A stretch of 64,000 nt of DNA, taken from an uncultured delta proteobacterium. Its GTDB lineage: Bacteria; Myxococcota_A; Polyangia; Polyangiales; Polyangiaceae. The translations under genes were made by a program, and so were the position numbers. Below, one piece after another: positions 11,635 through 47,799 of this stretch; the first letter of the stretch is position 1, and every line of letters begins with the position of its first letter. The notes under the pieces are model-generated. The model was not told the origin of the DNA. It was given only the letters and a program-made list of their open reading frames with translations, and searched no databases. The stretch spans positions 704,001 to 768,000 of the forward strand of contig CAVOKF010000007.1 in NCBI GenBank assembly GCA_963696385.1, read 5' to 3'.

Positions 11635-13039
11635 GGTTGACCGCGAGGTTGAGACGGACGGAGTCCACCTGCCCGCCGTGTTCGAAGGTCTCCGATCCGC
11701 ACCCGGCGAGGAGCTCGATGGGGTAATCGCCCATGCCGATGCTGGTCAGGGCGACCGAGCCCGAAAAGCGCAACCGTCCAGGGCGAAACCCCTCGAGGTG
11801 CTCGTCGAACACATTGCCGACGGCGGCCTCGAGGCTGCCGCCCAGCCACGGCCCGACCGGCCAGACGTAGTGCAACGCCCCTGCGGCGGCGCTCCGGTCG
11901 ACGAGGCGACCCGGGTAATAGCCGCGCATCGGGCCATCGCCGCCGAGGGTGGCGAGCTCGGTGAAGGGGACTGGATTCGTGCCAATCGGGTCGGCGAACA
12001 CCGCCGTCACCAGGATACCCAGAACGCGCCCGTGCTGGTTGAGGTCGATGTAACCGCCCGCCGTGCCGCCGTAGCGAATCCAACCCGAAGCGGGCGACCC
12101 GCGCACGTCGCTGCCCTGCTCGCCCTTGATCTCCAGATGAACGCCCGACCCGGGCACCGTGTTCTGGGCCGTCGCTTGCTCGGCCGACGTGGGCCAGGGC
12201 GGCCGGGAATCCACAATGAGGTCGAGTCGGTTGTACTCGGCCGAATAGCCACGATCGAAGCCATACGGGATCGCGAACGCTTGCGTCGCCGCTTCGCGCG
12301 TCAGGCTGGGGTCACTGCCGTAGTGCCCGTCGGTCATGTCGGCGATGCGCATGCCGGCGCCCGCCTCGATGCGGCTCTGACGCCAGAAATGCCACTGAAG
12401 CAGTCCCCCGACCTCGAGGGTCTGCTGCGTGTAGCGGCTCTGGTACGATTGGAGCGTGTCGGGGCCGATGCCGTAAAAGACGCGGTCCGGCCGATGAAGC
12501 TCCGACAGGTGAAAGACCACGGCGCGATGGGTGCCGACCGGGATTCGCTCCGTCAACGACGCGGCGTACCAATCCGTGGGCCAGGCCTCCACATGAGCGC
12601 TCAGCCGGTGACCGGCGAAGAACGCGTCGTTCCAAAACGCGTAGATGCCGACGCTCGGGTTGAAGCCGAATTCGAGCAACCCCACCGGCGTGAACCCCGC
12701 CTTGTGCTCCGGTCCGAACGTGAAAAAGTCGTAGACCTTGCGAGGAATGTCTGCGTCCTCGGCCGCCGGAACGACGATCGACAGCGGCCACCGAATCACG
12801 TATTCGCTCACCAGATACAGAGGCGAGAGCAGGATTCGCGGGACCCAGAGCAGCACCTCGCCCGCGGTCGTCGGCTCAGGCCCGCGACCGCTGTAGTCGG
12901 GCACGGCCCGCCGGGGCGATGGAGAGGTCGCCCGGGCGGGCGCCGGGGCCGGGGCGGGCGCCGGGTCGAGCGCATCCCCGTTCGCGGACCGCGCAAGGCC
13001 AACCGCAAGAGCGAGCAGAACGAAAGGGGCGCACCTCAC
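11624..13039 (-). CDS. BamA/TamA (Omp85) family outer-membrane protein
   Basis: Signal peptide, alternating beta-strand pattern, TLGGDGPMRGYYPGRLVD (loop-6 VRGY-type motif), C-terminal Phe. Confidence 0.8.
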   Translation of the reverse strand: MRCAPFVLLALAVGLARSANGDALDPAPAPAPAPARATSPSPRRAVPDYSGRGPEPTTAGEVLLWVPRILLSPLYLVSEYVIRWPLSIVVPAAEDADIPRKVYDFFTFGPEHKAGFTPVGLLEFGFNPSVGIYAFWNDAFFAGHRLSAHVEAWPTDWYAASLTERIPVGTHRAVVFHLSELHRPDRVFYGIGPDTLQSYQSRYTQQTLEVGGLLQWHFWRQSRIEAGAGMRIADMTDGHYGSDPSLTREAATQAFAIPYGFDRGYSAEYNRLDLIVDSRPPWPTSAEQATAQNTVPGSGVHLEIKGEQGSDVRGSPASGWIRYGGTAGGYIDLNQHGRVLGILVTAVFADPIGTNPVPFTELATLGGDGPMRGYYPGRLVDRSAAAGALHYVWPVGPWLGGSLEAAVGNVFDEHLEGFRPGRLRFSGSVALTSIGMGDYPIELLAGCGSETFEHGGQVDSVRLNLAVNHGF

Positions 13040-13243
13040 GGCCGTGGCTGTACCACCCCCGCCTTCGCGACGAGACCCTCACCCCTTTCGATCCTTGCCA
13101 AAGAATGCGCCGGGCGCACAACGGCGCGCTCTTCGAACCGTGGACCCATACTCCACTCCGATGCCGCGCGAGTGCCGCTTGTGACGTGGATCGCGCGGCA
13201 TTTTTCATGCGCTGCTCCCAGCGCCGGGGCATGGGGCGGCAAA

Positions 13244-13792
13244 CTAGTCGGACGACCCTGCCGCCGCGATGAGCCGGCGAACCTCGACCCGATGCATTTC
13301 GCTTCGTCGCGCGAGCACCGTCGTGCTGGTCGAGCCGTCGGCGCCGGGGCGAACCTCGCTCACGGCCACCGGGGTCACGACGATGTGTCGCGCCACCGGT
13401 CCGCTGGGGTCCGCGAGCATGCGAATCGCTTCGAGCAGTCCTTGATTGAACTCGAAACGTGCCCAGCGAATGGGGGTGGCGTCGCCGCTGGTCCGGGTCC
13501 ACACCAGGTTTTCGCCGCAGCAGCTCGGGGGAGACGACCACTCGCCCGCGCCGTGGTCGGTGAATGCGACGCGGACCGACTCCGGCGTCATGCCGAGACG
13601 CACGCCTCGCACCGCACCCAACGAGACCGGCCGCGCTCGCGCGACGGCGAACCAGAACGCGCCCGCCGCGATCAGTACGATCAGCGAACCGACGGTCCAA
13701 GGCCGGATCGCCCGCCGAACCGGCGGGCCGGCGGCCGGCACCTCCTGCCGGCTAGGGACGTTTTCCGATGGTTGCGAGGATTCGACGCGCAT
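13244..13792 (-). CDS. hypothetical single-TM protein
   Basis: TM segment VGSLIVLIAAGAFWFAV, then GVRLGMTPESV; last gene of the SCO-CusF run; start uncertain. Confidence 0.6.
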   Translation of the reverse strand: MRVESSQPSENVPSRQEVPAAGPPVRRAIRPWTVGSLIVLIAAGAFWFAVARARPVSLGAVRGVRLGMTPESVRVAFTDHGAGEWSSPPSCCGENLVWTRTSGDATPIRWARFEFNQGLLEAIRMLADPSGPVARHIVVTPVAVSEVRPGADGSTSTTVLARRSEMHRVEVRRLIAAAGSSD

Positions 13793-14087
13793 CCTCGGCC
13801 TCCGTGAATTCGAATGCGACGCGATCGCCCACGACGAGCCCGTCGAGCTGCTCTTTGCGTTCGGGCCAGAACGACATCGTCATCGCGCTCATGTACCCAG
13901 GAATCTCGTCATGCGCGATGTTCACGTACCTGCGATCCGGACCGAACGATCGAATGACGCCCGTGGCTCGGTACCTCTTCGGGTCGGCTTGCGGAGCGTC
14001 CGGCGGCCCTGCCGCAAACCCGACGATCGACCTTCCGAGCAGGAGGGCGCCGCAAACCAGGACCGCGGCCGCCCGCACACGCCGCAT
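13752..14087 (-). CDS. CusF-like copper-binding protein
   Basis: Signal peptide; RYRATGVI...IAHDEIPGYMSAMTMSF...GDRVAF. ATG overlaps the SCO stop (TGATG). Confidence 0.88.
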   Translation of the reverse strand: MRRVRAAAVLVCGALLLGRSIVGFAAGPPDAPQADPKRYRATGVIRSFGPDRRYVNIAHDEIPGYMSAMTMSFWPERKEQLDGLVVGDRVAFEFTEAEDARRILATIGKRP

Positions 14088-14764
14088 CACGACGCCCCGG
14101 TCAGGTCGAGCACGTCGTGCACGAGTCCCACCATTCGTTCCGGGTCGCCGGCCGCGTAGTAGCCGCGAATCCCCCCGTCGCCATCCACGAGCACCAGCCA
14201 CTCGCCGTGCATGATCGTGGCAATGCCGGCGCCGGGATCGGCCCGCTGGAACGTGGTCTTGAAGCCGCCCACCACGACTCGGTCGAGGTCCGCACTGCGG
14301 CCCGACAGAAAGGACCAGCGGCGGGCATCGGCGCCGTACCGAGCGGCATACCGGTCGAGCACCTCGGGGGTGTCGTTCTCGGGGTCGAGCGTAATCGACA
14401 CGAGATGGACGCCTAGCGGCCGCCCGATCTTTTGCTCGCGATCGGCCACGGCCTTCTCGACCGAGGCCATCTGTGCCGTGAGCATCGGGCACGATGTCGT
14501 GCAGGACGCGAAGAAAAAGTCGACAACGAGCACTTGGCCGCGCAGCGTCGTGTCGCTGACGGGTGTCCCACGCTGATCGGGCATCTCGAAGGACGGGATG
14601 TGTCCGAGCACTACGGCGGGGACTTGCTGCGCCCCGGCCCGGGCGTGGCGCCGCGCCACCGAGGCCGTGACCAGCGCGCAGACCGCCAGAGCGGCCAGCA
14701 GTGCGAAGCGGGCATTGTACACCGGGCGATGGCGCGGACTCGCCCCGTCCACGGCGGGTTGCAT
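14087..14764 (-). CDS. SCO1/SenC family copper chaperone
   Basis: DFFFASCTTSCP (CxxxC), SITLDPENDTPEVL, conserved His in IMHGEWLVLVD. Confidence 0.93.
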   Translation of the reverse strand: MQPAVDGASPRHRPVYNARFALLAALAVCALVTASVARRHARAGAQQVPAVVLGHIPSFEMPDQRGTPVSDTTLRGQVLVVDFFFASCTTSCPMLTAQMASVEKAVADREQKIGRPLGVHLVSITLDPENDTPEVLDRYAARYGADARRWSFLSGRSADLDRVVVGGFKTTFQRADPGAGIATIMHGEWLVLVDGDGGIRGYYAAGDPERMVGLVHDVLDLTGAS

Positions 14765-14942
14765 CACGGCGCCAAGTATACGGTCGGCGGCCCGCGAACG
14801 CCATGAGGCGAACTGTCGCACCGGCGCGCAGCCTACCCGCGTGTCCCGGCCGCTCGAGACCGCCACGGCCCGGGCGCACGACCGCTCCGATCGGGGATTG
14901 CGTCAGAGTACGTTCGATCCATCTTGGAAGCGGACAAATGTC

Positions 14943-15533
14943 ATGACCGACACCCTCGCGATCGATCCGAAAACCGCAGCACTGCTCGTCATGGACTTCC
15001 AAACGGCCATCGTGGACGGCTTCGTCGGCGACAAGGTGGCGCTGTTGGCTCGCACTGCCGCCCTCATCGAGGCTGCCCGAAAGGCGAGTGTGCGGGTCAC
15101 CTACGTGGTCGTCGCCTTCCGTGCCGGGTATCCCGAGGTGAGTCCGCGCAATCCGAGCTTCAATGCCCTCCGCTCGACGGGACGCTTTCTCGAGGGTGCA
15201 GCCGGGACCGAAGTCCACCCTTCGGTGGCCCCCCAGCGCGGCGAGGCGGTCGTGACCAAGCGGCGGGTAAGCGCATTCGCGGGGACGGACCTCGACATGC
15301 TCCTGCGTGCCAACGGGATCGAGACACTCGTGATCGCCGGCGTCGCGACGAGCGGGGTCGTGCTCTCGACGGTCCGGCACGCCGCCGACGCCGACTACCG
15401 GCTCATCGTGGTCGCCGACTGCTGCGCGGACCGCGACCCCGAGGTCCACCGCGTGCTCGTCGAGAAAATCTTCGCCCGGTCGGCCACCGTGACGACCGCC
15501 GAGGCGGTGATCGCGGCGCTCTCCAACGTGTGA
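14943..15533 (+). CDS. isochorismatase-family cysteine hydrolase
   Basis: TAALLVMDFQ, KRRVSAFAGTDL, GVATSGVVLSTVRHAADADY (YecD-like subgroup). Confidence 0.92.
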   Translation: MTDTLAIDPKTAALLVMDFQTAIVDGFVGDKVALLARTAALIEAARKASVRVTYVVVAFRAGYPEVSPRNPSFNALRSTGRFLEGAAGTEVHPSVAPQRGEAVVTKRRVSAFAGTDLDMLLRANGIETLVIAGVATSGVVLSTVRHAADADYRLIVVADCCADRDPEVHRVLVEKIFARSATVTTAEAVIAALSNV

Positions 15534-15563
15534 TCCGAGGCCACCTCCACCCTCGAGCGGTGC

Positions 15564-16153
15564 CTACCGGCTCTGTGGCGTTGGACCCCTCAAGATGGCA
15601 TGCACCCGAGCCCTGTCGCCCAGAAGAAGCTCGATGGCCCGCCCGAGCCCGACCTCCGCGGCGACGACCTTGAGCAGATCTCGGGCGACGCCGTGGCGAA
15701 GGCCGGTTGGATCGCGCTCGGAGCGACGACCTCGGCAGGAGGCCTCTTCGCGGGGGCCTTCGTCTTGACCGCGGCCAACTTGTCCGCCGACCGGATGTTA
15801 TACACGTAGCCGACCTCCAATTGGATTCCGGCGGCCTTCGCCCGGTCCACGATCTCGCCCGGCGACAGGGTCGCGTGGGATCGTACGAAGGCGGCCTTGC
15901 TCACGAGGGCCGGCTTCGATGTCGCGATCGGGGCGTTCGAGGTCTTTTTCGCGGGCGCCGCCGCCTTCTTCGGGACAGCCGCTTTCGCGGCTTTCGCGGT
16001 TCGGCGCACCTCGTAGACGAGGCCGGGCCGGAGATCGATCCCCTTGGCCTTCGCCTTTTCGACGATTTCGGCGGCGGACATCGCGGCGGACTGGGCGCGG
16101 ATAAAGTCGGACTTGTTGACTGGTTTCGGGGTGCTGGTCGTCGTAGGGGCCAT
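15564..16153 (-). CDS. Lys/Ala-rich tandem-domain putative DNA-binding protein (paralog A), frameshifted near 15681
   Basis: Two copies of a KSxF[IV]R..LS..E[IV]V..AKA.GI....[LY]VY.[IV]R domain. Adding one G restores PEDLLKVVAAEVGLGRAIELLLGDRARVHAILRG, matching the C-terminus of paralog B. Confidence 0.8.
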
Positions 16154-16165
16154 GTTCCGTACTGG

Positions 16166-16195
16166 ATTTCAGCACGAGCGACGCGGCATGGCCAA
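16166..16195 (-). promoter_or_regulatory. putative sigma70-like promoter of paralog A
   Basis: TTGGCC-N18-TGAAAT with TG at the extended -10 position, 12 nt before ATG; same geometry as upstream of paralog B. Confidence 0.5.
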
Positions 16196-16314
16196 CATTC
16201 GCCCGGTTGCTCCCCGCGACGAGCGGCGGAAGGGCCACCGTCGTCGCCGAAGGAATGGATGCCAAAGGATACGGTTAGGCGCGGCGCGCGCCTGGGGAGG
16301 GCGCACCATGACGA

Positions 16315-16347
16315 ACGGCATGGGCTCCTGAAAGCTGCCCATGCCGT
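16315..16347. terminator. inverted repeat hairpin (terminator-like, no U tract)
   Basis: ACGGCATGGGC-N11-GCCCATGCCGT, perfect 11-bp stem about 25 nt downstream of the TAG at 16372. Confidence 0.55.
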
Positions 16348-16371
16348 GGTCAGCCGCCCAACCCCCGGGGG

Positions 16372-17509
16372 CTACTTCCTCTGAGGCTTCTTGGGCGCAG
16401 CCGGAGCGGGGCGCGGAGCCGCGGGCGCCGTGTGCCCAGCCTTCGCCGCGGGATTCCGTCCGAGCTGGTTCGGCCCTGCCTGCGGGCTCCCTGGACGCTT
16501 CGCTCTTGCCCGTGGGCTCGCTCTTGCCCGCGGGCTCCTTGGACGCTTCGGCCTTGCCTGCGGGCTCCTTCGGCTCCTTGGAGGCTTCGGTTCTGCCTGC
16601 CGGACCCTTGGAGCCTTCGCTCTTGCCGGGCTCCTTGGACGCTTCGGCCTTGCCTGCGGGCTCCTTCGGCTCCTTGGAGGCTTCGGTTCTGCCTGCCGGC
16701 CCCTTGGGGCCTTCGCTCTTGCCGGGCTCCTTGGACGCTTCGGCCTTGCCCGCGGGCTCCCTGCCATTGGTCGGTGTGCCGTGAGGTTCGGCCGAGCTGC
16801 CTCGGGCGGCCGTGGCGCGTCCCTCCGCGTGCTCGTTGCCCGGAGCGCCCTTCGGTTCCGATCGGGGCGTTGCCGTCCGTCCCGCCGCCGCTGTGCGGTG
16901 CTGCGGGGCGGTCGCGCGCGGCAGCGGGCGAGCGGGGCCGGTTGCATGCGCGTAGGCACCGCCCGGGCGATGACCCGGCGCTGGACCCGCTCTGTGCTCG
17001 ACGACGACGTGCTCGCCGCGATGGTAGTTCGCCGGCCGTTCCGGATGGGAAAACTGGATGCGGTCGCCGCCGTAGCTCCGATGCGGAGCATCGTGGGGAC
17101 CCCAGTAGCCCTGCACGTAGACGACGTGGTCGCCCACGCGCTCGTAGTACGGCTCGATGTAGAACTGGCCTTCGGGTGCCACGGCCCAATGCCCCCAATT
17201 CCAGCCCCAGTCCACGCCGTTCCAACCCCAATAGCCACCGACCCACACGTAGGCCGGACCGGGCGAATCCGTCTCCTCTTCGTAGACTGGATTGGGGGGC
17301 TCGCTCGTCGCGGTGACCTCTTCAGGGTCGGTGGGCACGGGCTCGGCCGTGTCGGCCGCGGCTTCTGCCGGCGGGGCCGCGGGTTCGGGCGCGGGCGCTG
17401 GGACTCCGACCGACACAGTCGCCACCGGCGGCTCGGGCGTAGCAACCCTTATCTGAGCGGCGCAGGCCGACAGCAGTACGGGAATCGTGAGCAATCCGAG
17501 GCGTTTCAT
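16372..17509 (-). CDS. YXWGXW-repeat lipoprotein with repetitive E/P/A/G/K tail (probable frameshift near 16451)
   Basis: GGAGG RBS; MKRLGLLTIPVLLSAC lipobox; YVWVGGYWGWNG, WNWGHW, YVQGYW. As sequenced the ORF runs to 16169; removing one C gives ...TESAAKAGHTAPAAPRPAPAAPKKPQRK* at 16372. Confidence 0.82.
16480..16760 (-). repeat. coding tandem repeat, 96-bp unit (EPAGKAEASKEPGKSEG[PS]KGPAGRTEASKEPK) x2 plus partial copies
   Basis: Near-identical DNA and protein units read directly. Confidence 0.88.
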
Positions 17510-17766
17510 TGATCCTCCCATTTGCGCAACCGCGGCCGTTGCCGCCGATACCTGCGCTTGCACTTGTGTACCAGAAGCGCGCTCAGTGGAGTGCGCCGCA
17601 ATGGACGGTGACGTTCGACATTTCGCAGTGACGGAGGCCGTCACCACCGTGACGTACCGGCGGCCGTTGGGAGCCGAAGCCAGCCCCCAATCCGCTTTCG
17701 ACGATGTCGGTCACCGTAGTTGAATGCAAAACTAAAACCAACTTTTCGATACCATGGCTTGCTTTT

Positions 17767-17804
17767 GCTCCGCAAGACGGAAAAGCGCTCCACAAGACGG
17801 AAAA
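17767..17804. promoter_or_regulatory. 18-bp direct repeat with 20-bp period (operator-like)
   Basis: GCTCCGCAAGACGGAAAA / GCTCCACAAGACGGAAAA in the divergent intergenic region. Confidence 0.6.
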
Positions 17805-18018
17805 ACGGGCGGAGGCGAAGATCGGGTTAACCCGGATCCATCGAGTGTTGCGCCCGGTATCCCGGTATATCGATGACGGACCTCCACCTTCGCTGTGCCG
17901 CCGGCGCGCGCCCTCACTGCCGCTTGCATCGGCAAAAACCCGCCACCCTCTGGAGACCCGCCGCTCGGTGCCGGATCACAAAAGGCCCCATCCAGGTGTT
18001 GATTTCAAAAATTGGACA

Positions 18019-18048
18019 TTGCCCACATGGCCTGGACCGTGCTGAACT
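18019..18048 (+). promoter_or_regulatory. putative sigma70-like promoter of paralog B
   Basis: TTGCCC-N18-TGAACT with TG at the extended -10 position, 12 nt before ATG 18061. Confidence 0.5.
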
Positions 18049-18060
18049 CTCGCGCTCAAC

Positions 18061-18651
18061 ATGGCCGCCGAGAAAACCAACCCCTCCGACAAGAAACCAC
18101 TGACCAAGTCCGACTTCATTCGCCAGCAACCGGCGAGCCTTTCCGCCGCCGAAGTCGTCGCGAAGGCGAAAGGCGAGGGGATCGAGTTCGGCCCTGGGCT
18201 CGTCTACGAGGTCCGCCGGCTTGGGAAAGCCAAGAAGAGCGCGGTACCGACGAAGGCGGTGGCGGTCGCGAAGAAGACCTCGACCGGATCGAACGGATCC
18301 GTGGCGAAGCCCGTGCCCAGCAAGGCCGACTTTGTTCGCAAGTTCCCTAACCTCTCCCCCAAAGAGGTCGTCGAGAGGGCCAAGGCCGAGGGTGTCACGT
18401 TCGACGTTGGATACGTTTACAACATCCGGTCCGCGGATAGGGCGGCCGAGGCGAAAAGGAAGCCCTCTCCAAAGCCGACCGCCGCAAAGCCCCAGCCGGC
18501 CGCCGTGAGCGCAAGCCGACCGTCCGCCCCCGCGAGCGCCACCGCCACCGAGGATCTGCTGCGTGCCGTCGCCGCTGAAGTCGGGCTGGGGCGAGCGGTC
18601 GAGATCCTCGCGGGCGAGCGGGCAAGGGTGCACTCCATCCTGCGAGGCTGA
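18061..18651 (+). CDS. Lys/Ala-rich tandem-domain putative DNA-binding protein (paralog B)
   Basis: TKSDFIRQQPASLSAAEVVAKAKGEGIEFGPGLVYEVRR and SKADFVRKFPNLSPKEVVERAKAEGVTFDVGYVYNIRS, basic linkers, C-terminal helix EDLLRAVAAEVGLGRAVEIL. Confidence 0.85.
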   Translation: MAAEKTNPSDKKPLTKSDFIRQQPASLSAAEVVAKAKGEGIEFGPGLVYEVRRLGKAKKSAVPTKAVAVAKKTSTGSNGSVAKPVPSKADFVRKFPNLSPKEVVERAKAEGVTFDVGYVYNIRSADRAAEAKRKPSPKPTAAKPQPAAVSASRPSAPASATATEDLLRAVAAEVGLGRAVEILAGERARVHSILRG

Positions 18652-18718
18652 CGGATTTTCCGGGGCGCCGAACGTGTTGGCGGACCGAGGATCTCAAGGG
18701 TAGAGAGGCCGCCTGGAG

Positions 18719-18880
18719 TCAGGCTTTGTTCGGCTTGGACTGCGTATTTCCCAGCGCGATCCAGCGCATCACGACCTGCCAGGCGGCCTGCCTTTGCGCC
18801 TCCGATGTGCTGCGGCGCAATGCGTCGAGGTAGTCCCCACTAGCGGCGTACAAGCCGCGAGCGATTTCGTCTTCGGTCAT
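18719..18880 (-). CDS. small hypothetical protein (53 aa)
   Basis: Manual translation MTEDEIARGLYAASGDYLDALRRSTSEAQRQAAWQVVMRWIALGNTQSKPNKA; below the ORF-track cutoff; no clear RBS. Confidence 0.4.
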   Translation of the reverse strand: MTEDEIARGLYAASGDYLDALRRSTSEAQRQAAWQVVMRWIALGNTQSKPNKA

Positions 18881-19164
18881 GGAGCCGAAAGCCTAGCCCA
18901 CGCGCACGCCGAACGTCACCTCGGACATCGCACCGTCGGCGTCGGCCGCGCGAAGCAACCAGGAAAACGCTCGCCCGCGTCTTGGCCCTTCGGGGCAAGG
19001 CCCCGATCCGAGGCTGTCGCGACGCATCCGCCCGTTGCAGGCAGCCTTTCCGGGCAGGCAGCCGAACCCCGCCTGAAGGAGGGGTCGTCGTGCGGTGCGA
19101 CGCACCTCCAGGACCCCATGGACGGTGAAGGTTCGTCGTTCCGCTCTAAGTCGTCGATATTGTT

Positions 19165-19239
19165 GGGTGACCGACGGGGCTCGAACCCGCGACATCTGGA
19201 GCCACAATCCAGTGCTCTACCAACTGAGCTACGGCCACC
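19165..19239 (-). tRNA. tRNA-His(GTG)
   Basis: GGTGGCCGTAGCTCAGTTGGTAGAGCACTGGATTGTGGCTCCAGATGTCGCGGGTTCGAGCCCCGTCGGTCACC: cloverleaf, anticodon GTG, G-1:C73 pair. Confidence 0.97.
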
Positions 19240-19381
19240 ACGCTGCCAGGCAGCTCGCACCATAGCCGCTGGGCTCGGCGTTTCAAGGAGCCGAGCCCGG
19301 GGCCGGCAACCGAACTCCCGCGGATCGGCCGGTCGAGCAGGTCGGCCGCTCGGACCACGGCGTTATGGTACGACGCGTCGC

Positions 19382-20560
19382 ATGCGCGCACCGCCGAGTG
19401 CCTCGATCGAGACCCTCTGCATCCATGCGGGCCAGGAGCCGGACCCCGCATCGGGGGCGGTGATGTTGCCCATCGTGCTTTCCTCGACGTTCGCGCAGGA
19501 CGGTCCCGGCGTCCACAAGGGATTCGACTACTCGCGGGCCGGCAATCCGACGCGCGCGGCGCTCGAGGCGTGTCTGGCGACGCTCGAGGGAGCCCAGCAC
19601 GGCATCGCGTTCAGCAGTGGTTGCGCCGCGTTGACCGCGGTTGTCCTAACGCTCCGGTCGGGCGATCATGTCCTGGTCGGCGATGACGTGTACGGAGGAA
19701 CGTTCCGCATTTTCGACCAAGTCGTGGCCCCATTCGGGATCGAGTCGAGCTTCGTCGACATGAGCGACCCCGTGCGGGCCATCGAAGCGATGCGACCGAA
19801 CACCCGGCTCGTTTGGATTGAGACCCCGAGCAATCCCTTGCTCAAAGTGCTCGACATCCAGGCTCTCTCCGCAGCCGCGCGCGCGAGAGGCGTACCTGTG
19901 GCGGTGGACAACACGTTTGCGACGCCCATGCTCCAGCGCCCGCTCGATCTCGGCGCATCGATCGTGGTGCATTCGACGACGAAATACTTGAATGGGCATT
20001 CGGACGTCGTCGGCGGGGCGGTGCTGACCAACGACCGAGCGCTCGCGGAGCGGCTGCATTTCGTGCAGAAGGCAGCGGGCAGCGTGCCGAGTCCGTTCGA
20101 CTGCTACCTCGTACTGCGCGGACTCAAGACCCTCGCGGTGCGGATGAAGCGACACGTCGAAACGGCGCGCGGGATCGCGCAGTGGCTCGCGACCCACCCG
20201 CGGGTCGCGCACGTTCACTACCCGGGACTGCCGGGCCACGCCGGCCACGCGATCGCGGCGCGGCAGATGAAGGGTCCCGGAGGAATGATCACGTTCGAGA
20301 TCGAAGGGGCGCTCGCGCAGGCGGTGGCTTTCTTACGGGCGCTTCGCATCGTCGCGTGCGCGGAAAGCCTGGGAGGCGTCGAGTCGCTCGCAGAGCACCC
20401 GGCGACGATGACGCATGCGAGTGTGCCTCCGCAGGCGCGGCAAGCGCTCGGAATCCGGGACGGATTGATCCGTCTGTCGGTCGGATTGGAAGACGCCGGC
20501 GACCTGAGGGGCGACCTCGAACGAGGCTTTCGCGCCGCGTTCGAGCAGACCCACGGATGA
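19382..20560 (+). CDS. cystathionine gamma-synthase/lyase family PLP enzyme
   Basis: YSRAGNPTR, ETPSNP, VDNTFATP, HSTTKYLNGHSD, AESLGGVESL, RLSVGLED. Confidence 0.95.
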   Translation: MRAPPSASIETLCIHAGQEPDPASGAVMLPIVLSSTFAQDGPGVHKGFDYSRAGNPTRAALEACLATLEGAQHGIAFSSGCAALTAVVLTLRSGDHVLVGDDVYGGTFRIFDQVVAPFGIESSFVDMSDPVRAIEAMRPNTRLVWIETPSNPLLKVLDIQALSAAARARGVPVAVDNTFATPMLQRPLDLGASIVVHSTTKYLNGHSDVVGGAVLTNDRALAERLHFVQKAAGSVPSPFDCYLVLRGLKTLAVRMKRHVETARGIAQWLATHPRVAHVHYPGLPGHAGHAIAARQMKGPGGMITFEIEGALAQAVAFLRALRIVACAESLGGVESLAEHPATMTHASVPPQARQALGIRDGLIRLSVGLEDAGDLRGDLERGFRAAFEQTHG

Positions 20561-47478: not shown

Positions 47479-47799
47479 ATGACGAAGAGCGAACTCATCG
47501 ACGCGCTGGCGGCTCGCCGGACGGACCTCACCAAGGCGCGAGCGGAGCTCGTCGTCAACTGCGTGTTCGACGCCATGACCGAGGCGCTGCAAGGCGGTGA
47601 GGGAATCGAGATCCGCGGCTTCGGCAGCTTTACGGTACGGCCGTACAAGCCCTACTCGGGCCGCAACCCGCGAACCGGCGATCCGGTCGACGTCCCGGCC
47701 AAGCGCTTGCCCTTCTTCAAGGTCGGCAAGGAGCTGAAAGAGATTGTCAACGGAAGTCGCCACCTGCCCATTACCGGTGGCAAGGACGACGACAAGTAG
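47479..47799 (+). CDS. ihfB: integration host factor beta / HU family
   Basis: MTKSELI, IEIRGFGSF, GRNPRTG, PFFKVGKELKE. Confidence 0.93.
   Translation: MTKSELIDALAARRTDLTKARAELVVNCVFDAMTEALQGGEGIEIRGFGSFTVRPYKPYSGRNPRTGDPVDVPAKRLPFFKVGKELKEIVNGSRHLPITGGKDDDK

Follow-up and report, generated by a model that had tools for sequence, protein, structure and literature searches.

What do two small basic proteins do that are encoded on opposite strands around a single lipoprotein gene in an uncultured Polyangiaceae bacterium from soil? Their genes occupy positions 15564-18651 of the window, a 64,000-nucleotide stretch of DNA (G000:C7:704001-768000, from genome G000 of 6.9 Mb in 8 contigs with 68% GC). 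As judged from sequence comparison and structural models, they are a real and strongly constrained paralog pair of a large, unnamed family restricted to the Polyangiales, with a predicted helix-turn-helix (HTH) fold class and an architecture like that of nucleoid-associated proteins (NAPs). The further reading that these are small, basic, modular nucleoid-associated (architectural) proteins of an undescribed family, with multivalent DNA binding and a C-terminal tail that would mediate assembly, has about an even chance of being correct in our judgement.

The domain layout was derived from an alignment of 53 two-module members of the family and from an AlphaFold2 (AF2) full-length model. A short N-terminal tail precedes two HTH-like modules, which are separated by a linker rich in lysine, alanine and proline (K/A/P); a second linker leads to the conserved C-terminal module. 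Module boundaries were set with a hidden Markov model (HMM), and order within the folded parts was assessed by the AF2 predicted local distance difference test (pLDDT). The two genes and their parts are as follows:

18061-18651, plus strand: plus-strand paralog, an intact open reading frame (ORF) of 196 amino acids (aa), isoelectric point (pI) 10.2, with orthologues P0002 and P0003 at 94-95% identity
18097-18234, plus strand: HTH-like module 1, residues 13-58, module HMM, AF2 pLDDT about 90
18235-18312, plus strand: K/A/P-rich linker 1, net charge about +4, predicted disordered with pLDDT <50 at residues 61-82
18313-18450, plus strand: HTH-like module 2, residues 85-130, pLDDT 94-95 in the full model
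18451-18537, plus strand: linker 2, rich in K/A/P and serine, predicted disordered with pLDDT <50 at residues 141-158
18538-18648, plus strand: C-terminal module, residues 160-196, in which a G-L pair is invariant and the second G nearly so
15564-16153, minus strand: minus-strand paralog, 196 aa once a base missing from the window is restored (protein P0013)
15986-16123, minus strand: HTH-like module 1, module HMM
15770-15907, minus strand: HTH-like module 2, module HMM
15680-15681, minus strand: site at which the window lacks one base, so that the minus copy falls into two frames, from comparison with contigs of the public runs X1 and X3
15585-15695, minus strand: C-terminal module, in the shifted frame

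The profiles of repeat 1 and repeat 2 align over 44 columns with an hhalign probability of 99.4% (E 5e-21), and modules 1 and 2 are therefore homologous. Mean column conservation reaches 0.71 in module 1, 0.73 in module 2 and 0.75 in the tail, but only 0.32 in both linkers, which indicates selection on the folded parts and not on the linkers. The plus copy differs from the 95%-identical P0002 at 10 positions, eight of them in linker 1 and two in module 2. Both proteins are strongly basic, with pI values of 10.2 and 10.4 (median 10.8 among 120 family proteins); net charges are about +4 per linker, with a neutral tail.

A preliminary description of this locus had reported two paralogs of ~195 aa on opposite strands. 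This holds for the plus copy, which is intact at 196 aa and has the architecture described, but the minus copy is not one ORF in the window. As the letters of the window stand, the minus-strand ORF at 15590-16153 encodes 187 aa with both repeats and unrelated C-terminal residues, and the conserved C-terminal module sits in a different frame with its stop codon at 15564-15566. This frameshift had been crossed silently in the earlier reading; the restored gene nevertheless encodes 196 aa. For the indel check, Logan contigs from four public runs were compared with positions 15400-18800 of the window. An extra base behind 15680 is present in DNA contigs of the runs X1 (depth 33.4/33.4) and X3 (depth 7.77/7.77), one contig per run and each run from a separate study, and the frame restored in this way yields a protein identical to the database entry P0013. 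The same two contigs are also one base shorter than the window at 16454, within the lipoprotein gene. That two indels lie less than 800 bp apart in an assembly of high contiguity speaks for consensus errors and not for biology; both paralogs are thus intact in nature. A programmed frameshift or a pseudogene was rejected for the minus copy, because the base is present in the contigs of two independent studies and the second indel lies 770 bp off. The analysis reveals single-base indels that split real genes in this assembly, and errors like those at 15680/15681 and 16454 may affect other genes of this genome.

The repeated unit of 40-46 aa had been taken for a three-helix HTH-like domain, and structure prediction agrees. 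A single 46-aa module, modelled by AF2 from 52 diverse modules, folds into three helices with a pLDDT of 93.0 and a predicted TM-score (pTM) of 0.72. Across these 52 modules, which include repeats 1 and 2, paralogs and distant genomes, the positions K4, F7, G27, V35, Y36 and R39 are at least 90% conserved; G27 is located at the turn, while V35, Y36 and R39 form a near-invariant V-Y-x-x-R motif in helix 3. Comparison of the module with the PDB by Foldseek gave no match at E<=1e-3, and the nearest structural neighbours, those in the top rows, are HTH portions of Fur, EspR, the small terminase of phage G20C, the RED subdomain of Sleeping Beauty, and Pax. The whole two-module model has its best match in the DNA-bound, bipartite paired domain of Pax6 (E 0.087, probability 0.60), and the HTH pairs of Tc3, SETMAR and Sleeping Beauty are also among the rows. 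Non-DNA folds, namely the PEX14 N-terminal domain, PqqD and a lasso-peptide leader-binding protein, score similarly; at this level the only thing that such scores can make certain is a common arrangement. When PDB chains were searched with the module profile, the top match was a designed repeat protein (E 0.006, with no stretch significant by itself), followed by four EspR sequences with marginal scores (E 0.04-0.056, 16.3-16.8 bits) over 28 residues that cover helix 2, the turn and helix 3. The ESM Atlas contains a look-alike cluster (score 0.90), 16% of whose members carry HTH_Tnp_Tc3_2. We read the module as a predicted HTH-type DNA-contacting unit of a new sequence family, in which the model provides the fold class and from which we infer the contact with DNA.

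The C-terminal element had been described as a helix present in both proteins. It is strongly conserved, but a simple amphipathic helix is probably not the right description. Over 53 sequences, nearly all positions from 164 to 190 are conserved, on all helical faces, and G175, L183 and R187 are invariant. In the full AF2 model, residues 162-195 are drawn as one straight helix (pLDDT about 80). The family-average hydrophobic moment, however, points to 289 degrees in the first half of the tail and to 125 degrees in the second, 164 degrees apart, and the moment of the whole segment falls to 0.05. Because of this collapse, a single straight amphipathic helix fits poorly. The motif G-h-x-[RKQ]-h is found within the last 60 residues of 214 out of 259 family proteins, its x position being filled by G in 135, by A in 30 and by the helix-start residues P, D, S, T or N in 20. 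The tail is therefore more likely to consist of two helices hinged at G-L-G, or of one helix buried all round, than of a plain amphipathic coiled coil. The G-L-G is presumably similar to that of helix-hairpin-helix (HhH) motifs, but the Pfam HhH profiles gave no match, and none of 25 tail sequences matched any Pfam profile at E<=5. A search of the PDB with the tail profile returned nothing below E 0.2. The idea that the tail is a degenerate HTH module was rejected on an hhalign probability of 0.3%. The tail may serve in self-assembly or in docking.

No named family had been recognised for these proteins, which is borne out by the databases: Pfam gives a consistent match in 0/53 members, and NCBIfam, PHROGs and PADLOC name none. 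The sole Pfam match above threshold is Protamine_like (22.3 bits, cut-off 21.3) on the frameshifted 187-aa ORF, which is considered compositional because only 3/53 members show it. A phage or defence origin was rejected, with PHROGs matches of only E 0.032 and 0.0078 and PADLOC matches in 0/4. A literature search, whose reach excluded subscription journals, found no description of the family.

The family is large. A word-indexed protein search detected 463 homologues at E<=1e-3 among 3,130 candidates; among the 120 matches listed, the names given are all 'hypothetical protein', except for one evident misnomer and one garbled entry, and every named organism is a Polyangiaceae metagenome-assembled genome (MAG). 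An exhaustive search with the single-module profile found 2,337 cluster representatives (50% identity) at E<=1e-3, 1,228 at <=1e-10 and 139 at <=1e-30. In the whole family, proteins carry one to five modules. A set of 259 proteins, in which one-module forms are under-represented, contains two modules in 182 proteins, three in 70, four in six and five in one; the tail profile matches 198 of them, in 195 cases at the very end of the protein. Whole genomes of the order contain a match in 33 out of 151 sampled, belonging to 4/24 families (f1 10/23, f3 10/15, f7 10/10 and f11 2/9). In a phylum-wide sample of 301 genomes, which missed three other positive families and is not exhaustive, matches were confined to G000 and 11/23 genomes of its own family, with 0/277 in the others. 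The 23 named loci in GTDB species genomes all come from uncultured MAGs obtained from soil, peat and similar sources, and are labelled Polyangiaceae (12), Myxococcales or Myxococcota (5) and 'delta proteobacterium' (6).

The window's genome contains about nine family loci, the pair included: three two-module genes, five one-module genes and the tail alone on a SNF2-type ORF. One of the five one-module genes has a degenerate N-terminus. At G000:C4:117297-117644 (locus L029), a one-module paralog shows a garbled N-terminus that could reflect an indel or a pseudogene, and at L026:2964-3074 an isolated half of a C-terminal module lies upstream of another paralog; both may be signs of family turnover or of more assembly errors.

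Some longer members combine family parts with other domains. P0156 (635 aa) contains family modules, two GerE/LuxR HTH domains and the tail, and other long members keep the modules but have different C-termini. In the window's genome, a 795-aa SNF2-family ATPase ORF (G000:C8:664505-666892, L022/L030) ends in the family tail behind an acidic D/E/P linker, whereas its orthologues (53-61% identical) in five other genomes with a readable C-terminus have a different conserved tail instead. The swap is particular to this lineage on the evidence of one assembly. A database search for the tail on longer proteins returned only two, of 354 and 370 aa, and did not recover the SNF2 fusion. Taken as they are, the fusions seem to point to DNA. 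A '770-aa fusion' in genome G118 was rejected, as it is actually a small one-repeat gene inside a spurious long ORF.

Pfam analysis of 93 neighbouring ORFs at 18 loci showed no recurrent neighbour of the family genes. RecD2 helicase, CLC channel and extracytoplasmic function (ECF) sigma factor genes occur twice each and HU once, the latter at locus L056, where it adjoins the family gene in divergent orientation; insertion sequence (IS) elements are present in three loci. Genes that stand alone in this way would be in keeping with an architectural protein, but are no proof of one. At L026:3086-3862, L027:3366-4187 and L064:2587-3393, one-module paralogs lie divergently beside a conserved gene whose protein combines a zinc ribbon (CxxC...CxxC), a lipobox-like segment and D/A-rich repeats; this neighbour is 60-67% identical between loci, and the pair is unlike the arrangement in the window. 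For transcription in situ, metatranscriptome contigs from two studies give a weak hint for both genes of the window: in the plus copy, X13 coverage runs from 18070 to 18612 without reaching the adjoining sequence, and X12 covers parts of the minus copy.

The arrangement of the two paralogs had been attributed to an old inverted duplication, and the comparison of the copies supports both terms. The paralogs share 52% identity over 163 aa (E 1e-38), the first 160 residues of the minus ORF being the part that resembles the plus copy. At the DNA level, the 5' halves of both genes, which are transcribed away from each other, form an inverted repeat:

15925-16127, no strand assigned: left arm of the inverted DNA repeat, 203 nt, 74% complementary, pairing with 18093-18295
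18093-18295, no strand assigned: right arm, pairing with 15925-16127

The repeat is the trace of an inverted duplication, and at this level of divergence (52% aa identity, 74% over 203 nt) not a recent one. A FastTree phylogeny built from 87 two-module members, for which support values were not printed, places the plus copy with P0002-P0005, and this clade is sister to a larger one that holds the minus copy, P0014-P0016 and other lineages. This placement implies that the duplication is older than several speciations. A close relative, also a Polyangiaceae MAG, carries both orthologues, P0003 (94%) and P0014, with locus tags two genes apart. A second family copy was sought in the flanks (up to ~4 kb per side) at 34 other loci of the family, and none was found. 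The arrangement as a pair around a lipoprotein gene is peculiar to the lineage and no family trait.

Between the paralogs lies a single gene, as had been noted before and as the ORF map and the lipobox confirm. This gene and the only Rfam match found are located as follows:

16372-17512, minus strand: lipoprotein gene, with a signal peptide and an L-S-A-C lipobox read from the sequence
19165-19238, minus strand: tRNA-His (GTG)

The predicted lipoprotein consists of the signal peptide with its lipobox, a W/Y/G-rich domain and a repetitive E/A/S/K/P tail, and matches zero Pfam families. The extra base of the window at 16454 extends its ORF to 16169; without that base it ends at 16372-16374. The 3' part of the gene (16467-16754) contains tandem repeats of 96 nt and 27-48 nt, which encode the E/A/S/K/P-rich tail, and one X1 contig skips 121 nt of the gene (16654-16776), suggesting strain-to-strain variation in repeat number. 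A 53-aa ORF with high GC content at third codon positions (GC3) but without a Pfam family lies at 18719-18880 on the minus strand, between the plus paralog and tRNA-His. Counterparts of this ORF and of the lipoprotein gene were sought in about 40 other family loci and none was found. The lipoprotein gene and the plus paralog diverge from a relatively AT-rich region of 550 bp, which contains a 20-nt tandem repeat at 17767-17806, with copies 90% identical, that may be a regulatory site. A promoter scan detected zero promoters, and Rfam zero RNA families except the tRNA.

The flanking genes encode, according to Pfam, Omp85, CusF, SCO1, an isochorismatase and a pyridoxal phosphate (PLP)-dependent Cys/Met enzyme. 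An integrated island at tRNA-His was rejected: a search of 13000-19400 for a direct repeat of the tRNA 3' end found none, the flanks contain housekeeping genes and no integrase or mobile gene, and the GC content is ordinary. About 29 kb from the pair, at 47479-47751 (G000:C7:751479-751751), lies the top-scoring HU/IHF gene of the genome (PF00216, E 5e-30).

What function could join these properties? As an architectural DNA-binding protein, each chain would use its 46-aa modules as HTH-type DNA-contacting units, with the V-Y-x-x-R motif on the third helix. The flexible, positively charged K/A/P linkers would string the modules together and add non-specific DNA affinity, as histone H1 tails do. 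If the C-terminal module assembles chains, including those of different paralogs, the resulting complex would present many HTH units and could coat, bend or bridge DNA. This proposal would imply DNA binding with little sequence specificity, self-assembly via the tail and a place in the nucleoid, and nucleoid association or silencing would be in keeping with architecture, charge and fold. It fits best because tandem HTH modules, a uniform recognition helix, charged linkers, one to five modules per protein and many paralogs are all accommodated, as are the portable tail, the stand-alone genes and the DNA-related fusions.

Several observations weigh against it. The function is read from predictions, and no named homologue supports DNA binding. 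The genome holds six to seven separate HU/IHF (PF00216) genes, so that no NAP gap demands this family. The linkers are just 26-27 aa long and K makes up only 10-11% of each protein; with linkers this short and moderately lysine-rich, 'histone H1-like' describes composition and not homology. The straight helix in the AF2 monomer is at odds with a hairpin in the tail. The RNA evidence consists of contigs, in which DNA carry-over is possible, abundance is not ranked and uncovered stretches are meaningless.

The same modules might instead read a bipartite operator, with the tail dimerising the protein and each paralog controlling its own regulon, perhaps including the lipoprotein gene. Such sequence-specific regulators would explain why the full model is best matched by the DNA-bound Pax6 paired domain and also by the pairs of Tc3, SETMAR and Sleeping Beauty, why P0156 joins family modules to LuxR-type regulator domains, and why the region shared with the lipoprotein gene contains a tandem repeat that is a possible operator. 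The recognition-helix residues, however, are near-invariant over repeats, paralogs and distant genomes, whereas regulators with different targets vary there; a uniform recognition helix would fit a shared non-specific target better than diverse operators. Module number varies from one to five and no neighbour is conserved; an architectural protein would also account better for the K/A/P linkers, the pI values above 10 and the roughly nine paralogs in each genome. We consider a regulatory role unlikely, and a role as DNA-tethered adaptor quite improbable. In the latter case, HTH modules and linkers would hold DNA while the tail docks on a conserved cellular partner, such as RNA polymerase or another machine, with a role in transcription or repair. 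Conservation of nearly all residues from 164 to 190 on every helical face is commonly seen where a surface has to match a fixed partner, and the replacement of another conserved tail on the SNF2 ATPase, in this genome only, would be expected of a portable docking module. Myxobacterial CarD, with its basic disordered DNA-binding tail and a protein-interaction domain, offers an analogy (PMC8156234). A tight homo-oligomeric bundle, however, explains all-face conservation equally well, the SNF2 fusion is a single case from an assembly with known indel errors, and the 18 loci yielded no candidate partner and no partner gene conserved beside the family genes.

A function away from DNA is very improbable. 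The modules could bind RNA, ribosomes, polyphosphate or another polyanion, or could act between proteins; basic K/A/P proteins can be bound by any polyanion, every structural match is weak, and the PEX14, PqqD and lasso-peptide leader-binding folds score much like the HTH folds. The majority of the best structural neighbours, on the other hand, are DNA-bound HTH domains, the fusion partners are LuxR HTH domains and a SNF2 ATPase, and the module has the HTH glycine at its turn and a conserved Y and R in helix 3.

The architectural reading can be extended, at decidedly long odds, to a core of Polyangiales-specific bacterial 'chromatin', in which paralogs with one to five modules would co-assemble via the shared portable tail into mixed multivalent oligomers that coat or bridge DNA, and in which the tail would recruit enzymes such as the SNF2 ATPase. 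If true, the system would correspond, in bacteria, to a linker histone together with a remodeller, and would possibly silence foreign AT-richer DNA in 68%-GC genomes that lack H-NS. To our knowledge, NAPs are known in detail for a few cultured phyla only, and we know of no lineage-specific NAP described for the large-genome, developmentally complex Polyangiales. The present family is strongly constrained and, with 2,337 clusters, large, and it is absent from Pfam and NCBIfam. Its design is simple and modular, with tandem mini-HTH units, a charged linker and a portable putative assembly tail. If these proteins do coat or bridge DNA, they would constitute a new structural class of bacterial chromatin proteins and offer a way to study how an important group of natural-product producers organises its genomes and silences genes.

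Among known systems, linker histones H1/H5 are alike in linker composition only. Their globular domain, which is joined to a long K-rich tail, is a winged helix with a β-hairpin, whereas the AF2 modules consist of three helices without a strand, and the Pfam linker-histone profile matches neither the pair nor any of the 53 members. H-NS, Lsr2 and MvaT follow the same logic, as they combine an oligomerisation part, a flexible linker and a DNA-binding part in small proteins of the abundant type with several paralogs. They differ in their folds and oligomerise N-terminally, whereas the present family has its HTH modules N-terminal and the putative assembly module C-terminal. Histone_HNS (PF00816) was detected in neither paralog (E<=1), in none of the 53 members and nowhere in the genome, while the E. 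coli control was recovered.

The paired HTH units of Pax, Tc3, Mos1 and SETMAR also consist of two small three-helix units joined by a linker. However, Pfam detects no sequence relationship to the family, and those domains recognise specific sites and belong to transposases or developmental regulators, whereas here one to five like modules are combined with a conserved tail.

In composition, the closest systems are mycobacterial HupB, Streptomyces DdbA and variants of CarD. In HupB and DdbA, a low-complexity, basic and disordered Lys/Ala/Pro segment adds DNA affinity to a folded domain, and for CarD the basic disordered domain is reported to suffice for function (PMC8156234). The segment is a long tail in these proteins, while here K/A/P sequences are short internal linkers between folded modules. 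The folded domains of HU, DksA and CarD_CdnL are unrelated to the modules of this family, and no family protein matches PF00216.

EspR, a mycobacterial nucleoid-associated protein, differs in having a single Xre-type HTH without tandem modules or K/A/P linkers, in its unrelated dimerisation domain and in its occurrence in Actinobacteria. Its likeness in sequence and structure, a marginal HTH profile match (E 0.04) and a Foldseek TMq of 0.54 (E 0.78), stays below any membership threshold. In working logic, however, EspR comes closest: it is described as bridging DNA sites far apart in the form of a dimer of dimers (PMC3315491), with the HTH in front and the assembly domain at the C-terminus, as is putatively the case in the family described here.

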